NCBI RefSeq assembly: GCF_044647545.1
Contig: NZ_CP172818.1
Length of the DNA stretch: 64,000 nt
Reading direction: 5' to 3' (one strand)
Origin: Escherichia coli
GTDB taxonomy: Bacteria > Pseudomonadota > Gammaproteobacteria > Enterobacterales > Enterobacteriaceae
The position numbers and the translations under genes were made by a program. Every line of letters begins with the position of its first letter. Position 1 is the first letter of the stretch. Shown here piece by piece: positions 53,595 through 53,657 of this stretch. The notes below the pieces were generated by a model that saw only the letters and a list, made by a program, of their open reading frames with translations, made no database searches and was not told where the DNA came from.

Positions 53595-53657
53595 GCGGTG
53601 TAATCGGTAAAAAGGTGCAGTCTTACCGTTGGTCAGGTGACCAGAGGCTAGTGGAGA

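Follow-up and report, generated by a model that had tools for sequence, protein, structure and literature searches.

Does the chromosome analysed here lack a gene between yjcE and actP, and if it does, is the absence a natural feature of the strain? In the window, by which we mean the whole 64,000-nucleotide stretch of Escherichia coli DNA under analysis, these two genes converge across a very short spacer. The original prediction stated that K-12 carries yjcF, encoding a pentapeptide-repeat protein of about 430 aa, at this position, and it offered two explanations: either this strain is without the islet, or this view of the K-12 order is wrong. The question is one of gene order, to which a chance expectation does not apply.

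The yjcE-actP junction in the window and in K-12

The genes at the site and their immediate neighbours are the following.

51945..53594, + strand: yjcE, Na+/H+ antiporter, 549 aa, full length (ORF listing; NCBIfam TIGR00831)
53595..53657, no strand: gene-free spacer of 63 bp between the convergent yjcE and actP (ORF listing and sequence)
53658..55307, - strand: actP, cation/acetate symporter, 549 aa, full length (ORF listing; TIGR02711)
55304..55621, - strand: yjcH (DUF485), upstream of actP on the same strand (ORF listing and annotated orthologous loci)
55831..57789, - strand: acs, acetate--CoA ligase (NCBIfam NF001208, 1115 bits)

The identity of both flanking genes is well supported by NCBIfam. 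The YjcE ORF scores 847 bits against TIGR00831 (CPA1 Na+/H+ antiporter), with an equivalog cut-off of 279.6, and the ActP ORF scores 1144.9 bits against TIGR02711, with an equivalog cut-off of 1099.25. Both proteins are 100% identical to their counterparts in E. coli FDAARGOS_497. The yjcE stop codon (TAA) occupies 53592-53594 and that of actP (TTA as the reverse complement) occupies 53658-53660, and in the 63 bp between the genes the ORF listing leaves room for no frame of gene-like size. The predicted spacing, with no yjcF inside it, is borne out by that listing and by the positions of the stop codons.

The K-12 gene also exists. The K-12 derivative DH1 is annotated in the order ghxP, yjcE, espX5, actP, yjcH, acs, and its espX5 (1293 bp, 430 aa, minus strand) is described as 'T3SS effector pentapeptide repeat protein EspX5'. 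Other records list this gene as 'yjcF: pentapeptide repeat-containing protein', so that yjcF and espX5 are one gene, and Pfam finds pentapeptide-repeat families in its product. The second explanation, that yjcE lies directly beside actP in K-12 as well, is false: annotation and sequence both place espX5 between the two genes in DH1, DH5alpha matches the full yjcE-espX5-actP query at 100%, and espX5 is annotated between yjcE and actP in TG1. It is the first explanation that holds, yjcF/espX5 being missing from the window and present in DH1. The two chromosomes share the same convergent flanking genes, with YjcE and ActP 99% identical at the protein level, but DH1 carries about 1.5 kb of espX5 DNA (430 aa, minus strand) where the window carries none.

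Homology searches agree with the ORF listing. By tblastn over the 64 kb window, no homologue of espX5, LysR, LrgA or LrgB was found in or near the spacer, and blastn-short returned only chance 7-9-mers at the site, with no nucleotide remnant of espX5 or of a LysR-lrgAB cassette. With EspX5, tblastn matched the 64 kb only once and only weakly, in a paralogous pentapeptide ORF at ~23.1 kb. This intact 526-aa ORF (22629..24209, + strand) lies between malM and ubiC, combines pentapeptide repeats with a SopA-like central domain, and is EspX4/YjbI-like; its likeness to EspX5 is limited to the repeats. The window thus retains another EspX-family gene, though it is without espX5.

Rfam, scanned over the whole window, gave no gathering-score match in the spacer, and a permissive search with an 81-bp form of the spacer, present in relatives, gave chance-level matches only (E of 1 or more). 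Elsewhere in the window, Rfam matched naRNA4 (REP-like) at 55710..55781 (+), between yjcH and acs, and at 21251..21321 (+) and 17022..17092 (+). Other matches were sraL at 49892..50032 (-), a lysine riboswitch at 7257..7453 (-) and STnc430 at 9347..9496 (-).

Three arrangements of the site in E. coli and related species

To place the window's arrangement among other strains, we searched 5,426 complete E. coli genomes with one query per arrangement, each spanning the site, and counted a genome when at least 80% of the query was covered. Three forms were recovered.

espX5 form: 4,103 genomes, for example K-12 and O157:H7
LysR regulator with CidA/LrgA and LrgB: 1,036 genomes, in B2 strains, for example Nissle 1917 and O25b:H4-ST131
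Contiguous empty form: 268 genomes with a 1,063-bp query and 259 with a 116-bp query, for example FDAARGOS_497 and IMT16316 (ST648)

Together, these forms account for 5,407 of the 5,421 genomes that gave any match, and the remainder include rare events such as an IS1 with sequence loss in strain LF3-1. The window belongs to the third form on every feature by which we defined it: convergent adjacency without an ORF, a spacer homologous to those of the other empty genomes, and no cassette remnant. It has the features of neither the espX5/yjcF-bearing form of K-12 nor the LysR-lrgAB form. The empty form is a minority (~5% of complete genomes) yet well represented. The missing yjcF/espX5 is genuine strain variation, an ordinary accessory-gene polymorphism at a gene known to vary. 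Genome surveys score espX5 as a variable 'virulence' gene, listed in some isolates and not in others (PMC8764355).

IMT16316, which has an 81-bp empty spacer, is an ST648 strain (PMC6003029). ST131, of phylogroup B2, has the LysR-lrgAB form. In FDAARGOS_497, the closest relative of the window, aceK lies directly beside iclR, with no arpA, and an rrn 5S gene lies beside yjaB, with no yjaA; under the Clermont scheme this pattern, typed on arpA and yjaA only, presumably points to a phylogroup F-like strain. As for the window, many complete E. coli genomes match its final 20 kb at 99.9% identity.

To view the site outside E. coli, we used YjcE as the query, with one genome per species, kept the best 80 loci, and placed the flanking and cassette proteins by tblastn; E. 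fergusonii, E. marmotae, Salmonella and the E. coli species representative are absent from those best 80. Most of the 80 loci carry LysR(-), lrgA(+) and lrgB(+) between yjcE and actP. This arrangement is found in Citrobacter, Enterobacter, Raoultella, Kluyvera, Leclercia, Yokenella, Trabulsiella, Cedecea and Shimwellia, in the Erwiniaceae Mixta, Erwinia and Winslowiella, sometimes with further genes, and in E. whittamii. EspX5 was found at the site in none of the best 80 other-species loci. Empty sites occur in E. albertii, in E. coli SCPM-O-B-8794 (which stands for a species cluster of its own), in Escherichia sp. MOD1-EC7003 and in Klebsiella indica.

Because the LysR-lrgAB form prevails among the outgroup loci, it is probably the ancestral arrangement. 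This form (Nissle 1917, ST131, E. whittamii, Citrobacter, Enterobacter and others) shares the window's flanking genes but holds between them a 2.1-kb three-gene cassette, which the window is without. The adjoining of LysR and LrgA/LrgB-family membrane proteins to the acs-yjcH-actP genes extends across Enterobacteriaceae and Erwiniaceae (locus L003, 2886..4966, and most of loci L007-L085). This conserved neighbourhood hints at a role tied to acetate or overflow metabolism.

Origin of the empty spacer

We consider it very likely that the window stems from a lineage of E. coli with the natural empty form of a three-form site, a reading that includes both the cassette-loss history described here and the private hairpin loss described below. 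In the most likely history, the ancestral LysR-lrgAB cassette would have been lost in an early Escherichia lineage, leaving an empty spacer. On visual reading, the empty spacers begin much like the yjcE-LysR spacer, and the likeness extends as far as the LysR stop codon. EspX5 would then have inserted later into such an empty site in other E. coli.

The K-12 segment differs in composition from its surroundings. Its ~1.5 kb have a GC content of ~30-35%, against 53-57% in the flanks, and yjcF is listed among known H-NS-bound loci (bioRxiv 10.1101/559138); low GC together with this listing fits horizontally acquired DNA. On composition and distribution, espX5 is an AT-rich insert, seen at this site only in E. 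coli.

Empty spacers have a length of 81-82 bp in E. coli and of 82 bp in E. albertii, and that of MOD1-EC7003 has 97 bp; all contain the hairpin AAAAAGGTGC-loop-GCACCTTTT. A small GGTCAGGTGACC hairpin stands beside the actP stop in all of them except that of E. albertii. Searches for an origin of the main hairpin returned no significant match inside the LysR-lrgAB cassette or as a repeated element. K-12 has homologous structures at both ends of its occupied region, with an A-tract/T-tract hairpin just past yjcE in its left flank and a small hairpin beside the actP stop. The 64 bp that follow the K-12 yjcE stop, a stretch containing the hairpin, agree with the E. albertii empty spacer at 52 of 64 positions, and the last 30 bp ahead of the actP stop agree with the MOD1-EC7003 spacer at 22 of 30. 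The AT-rich espX5 DNA (~1.5 kb) falls between these two matches. Since its flanks match empty spacers, K-12 resembles an empty site plus an insert; beyond the flank matches, global alignment of empty spacers with whole occupied regions gave noise only. About 66 bp before the actP stop, DH1 (locus L001, ~4940..4950) also holds GAAAAGGTGA, a degenerate second copy of the left arm of the hairpin. Situated where the espX5 insert ends on the right, this copy may be a trace of the insert's arrival.

The window-type spacer, in turn, is far from the K-12 left flank and close to the spacers of SCPM-O-B-8794 and MOD1-EC7003. Being unlike K-12, like non-coli Escherichia, and free of any remnant, it points to a site that probably never held espX5, rather than one from which the gene was recently deleted. 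Recent deletion is nevertheless the alternative to be weighed. Here, recent ancestors of the strain would have had a K-12-like espX5, lost cleanly so as to leave a short spacer. The espX5 form is indeed the majority (4,103 of 5,426 genomes), rare local disruptions such as the IS1 event in LF3-1 do occur, and the K-12 cassette is flanked by the degenerate hairpin-arm repeat (AAAAAGGTGC / GAAAAGGTGA), which could support recombination. A deletion between these repeats, however, would give another junction than the one observed. The left part of the window spacer is strongly unlike the K-12 left flank and matches the espX5-less non-coli Escherichia spacers, no AT-rich remnant is left in it, and the same empty spacer type is common to ~260 genomes and to other species. 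On this evidence, we regard recent deletion as improbable.

The preferred order of events, with the empty site before espX5 rather than a clean deletion, is one that we infer from the similarity of the flanks rather than from a tree. The three forms are common to several species, so recombination could have shuffled them. An ancient clean deletion of espX5 is conceivable, as is import of the empty form by recombination.

The wider region also differs between the haplotypes. From ~50,500 to ~57,700, ghxP through acs, the window is only 94-97% identical to K-12, which is unusually divergent, and identity rises to 99-100% from ~57,750 on. Such divergence suggests that the haplotypes around the variable site are old or have recombined. 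In the RefSeq 'E. coli' genome 14EC007, the yjcE-actP spacer (locus L004, 2417..2504) has exactly the sequence found in the E. albertii type strain NBRC 107761 (locus L006, 7648..7735), and the flanks are only ~90-92% identical to the K-12 and Nissle queries; 14EC007 would be either an albertii-like strain or the carrier of an introgressed segment.

An 18-bp loss in a terminator-like hairpin

The ST648-like empty spacers of 81-82 bp (FDAARGOS_497, IMT16316 and 14EC020) have the same empty form as the window, but the window lacks 6 bp and 12 bp of them. Relative to the 81-bp spacer of FDAARGOS_497, its 63-bp spacer is missing these 18 bases and is otherwise identical. The features of the window spacer are the following.

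53594..53595, no strand: first private deletion junction, with 6 bp (CGCTTG) missing just past the yjcE stop (alignments to relatives)
53605..53618, no strand: surviving 5' arm CGGTAAAAAGGTGC of the terminator-like hairpin (comparison with related genomes)
53621..53623, no strand: second private deletion junction, with 12 bp missing, A plus ATCGCACCTTT, comprising the end of the loop, the core of the 3' arm and the T-tract (alignments)
53629..53644, no strand: small retained hairpin TGGTCA GG TGACCA (fold), whose homologue in K-12 and Nissle is the actP-proximal hairpin CCCCGGTCAGACGACCGGGG

Over 33611..64000 (30.4 kb), window and FDAARGOS_497 are identical save for a prophage attachment site at dusA and the 18 missing spacer bases; the differences at the attachment site cluster at 33626..33709, at the dusA 5' end. 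FDAARGOS_497 has a ~34-kb prophage with an integrase beside dusA, and the window has none. Because that prophage adjoins dusA, the first 33.6 kb of the window did not align to positions 1,884,000-1,950,000 of the FDAARGOS_497 record, the interval that the comparison covered and which stops short of the sequence further upstream. Upstream of the part that matches the window, FDAARGOS_497 also carries a chromosomal resistance island (locus L093, 22,800..39,600) with CTX-M-15, OXA-1, aac(6')-Ib-cr, tet(A) and IS26, inserted in a tail gene of a prophage.

The 63-bp form appears to be private to the window. It was found in none of the 259 complete genomes aligning across the 116-bp query, all of which, at 80-90% identity, have the longer spacer type; the top-listed matches, at 86.6% identity, represent the 81-bp allele. 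A metagenome scan for the 63-bp junction gave no matches, at low power, the control with the 81-bp form matching only 4 contigs. An IS excision scar was considered as a source of the spacer and rejected, as the extra 795 bp in the three top matches is an IS1 within pdeC, and these genomes have the usual 81-bp spacer.

A spacer seen in no other complete genome and no metagenome contig raises the question of an assembly artefact, in which a collapsed or mis-joined region dropped a gene, and hairpins are error-prone in some sequencing chemistries. For the adjacency of yjcE and actP we find such an artefact highly improbable. Between 259 and 268 independent complete genomes show the gene-free arrangement, as do three further lineages of Escherichia, and the flanks are collinear with, and identical to, FDAARGOS_497 for 30 kb. 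A mistake of sequencing or assembly at a hairpin could account for the 18-bp loss alone, not for the absence of espX5.

Bidirectional intrinsic terminators between convergent E. coli genes consist of a GC stem bordered on its two sides by an A-tract and a T-tract. The spacers of the 81-bp relatives resemble them, having a GC-rich stem flanked by an A-tract and a T-tract, situated between converging stops and strong on both strands. In FDAARGOS_497, the arm CGGTAAAAAGGTGC pairs with GCACCTTTTTACCG in a 14-bp stem. Folding of its 81-bp spacer gave -34.7 kcal/mol (z -5.1) on the + strand, with a 14-bp stem, and -31.3 kcal/mol (z -5.9) on the - strand, with a stem of 15 bp. The window's 63-bp spacer gave -15.3 kcal/mol (z -0.6) on the + strand and -14.2 kcal/mol (z -2.5) on the - strand, where a weaker stem persists. 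With the core of the 3' arm and the T-tract deleted, the 14-bp-stem hairpin cannot form in the window. The layout of a bidirectional terminator (a stable stem, an A-tract and T-tract, convergent genes) is thus present in the 81-bp relatives and not in the window, which is unlike such terminators through the deletion of the 3' arm and T-tract. Simple consensus scans for promoters and terminators called no site in either the 63-bp or the 81-bp spacer. No terminator was called because the scan needs a T-run after the stem, and here the T-run is inside the extended stem.

Judging from its architecture, the A-tract/T-tract hairpin of the 81-bp relatives probably ends both converging transcripts, those of yjcE and actP. 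The private 18-bp loss, by removing the 3' arm and T-tract, would then probably weaken termination of the same transcripts in the window. We can extend this to a larger scenario, in which the loss is real and recent, removes a terminator shared by yjcE and the acs-yjcH-actP unit, and permits read-through whose antisense interference alters acetate uptake or Na+/H+ antiport. As a whole, this chain of events seems to us quite unlikely. If true, it would amount to a small regulatory change at a site already remodelled several times.

For the biology of E. coli, these results have little significance beyond annotation: the absence of yjcF/espX5 is confirmed as natural and not an error. The private 18-bp truncation of the terminator-like hairpin is the only unreported detail. 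It is a strain marker, and it could serve as a small natural test of a terminator shared between convergent genes.
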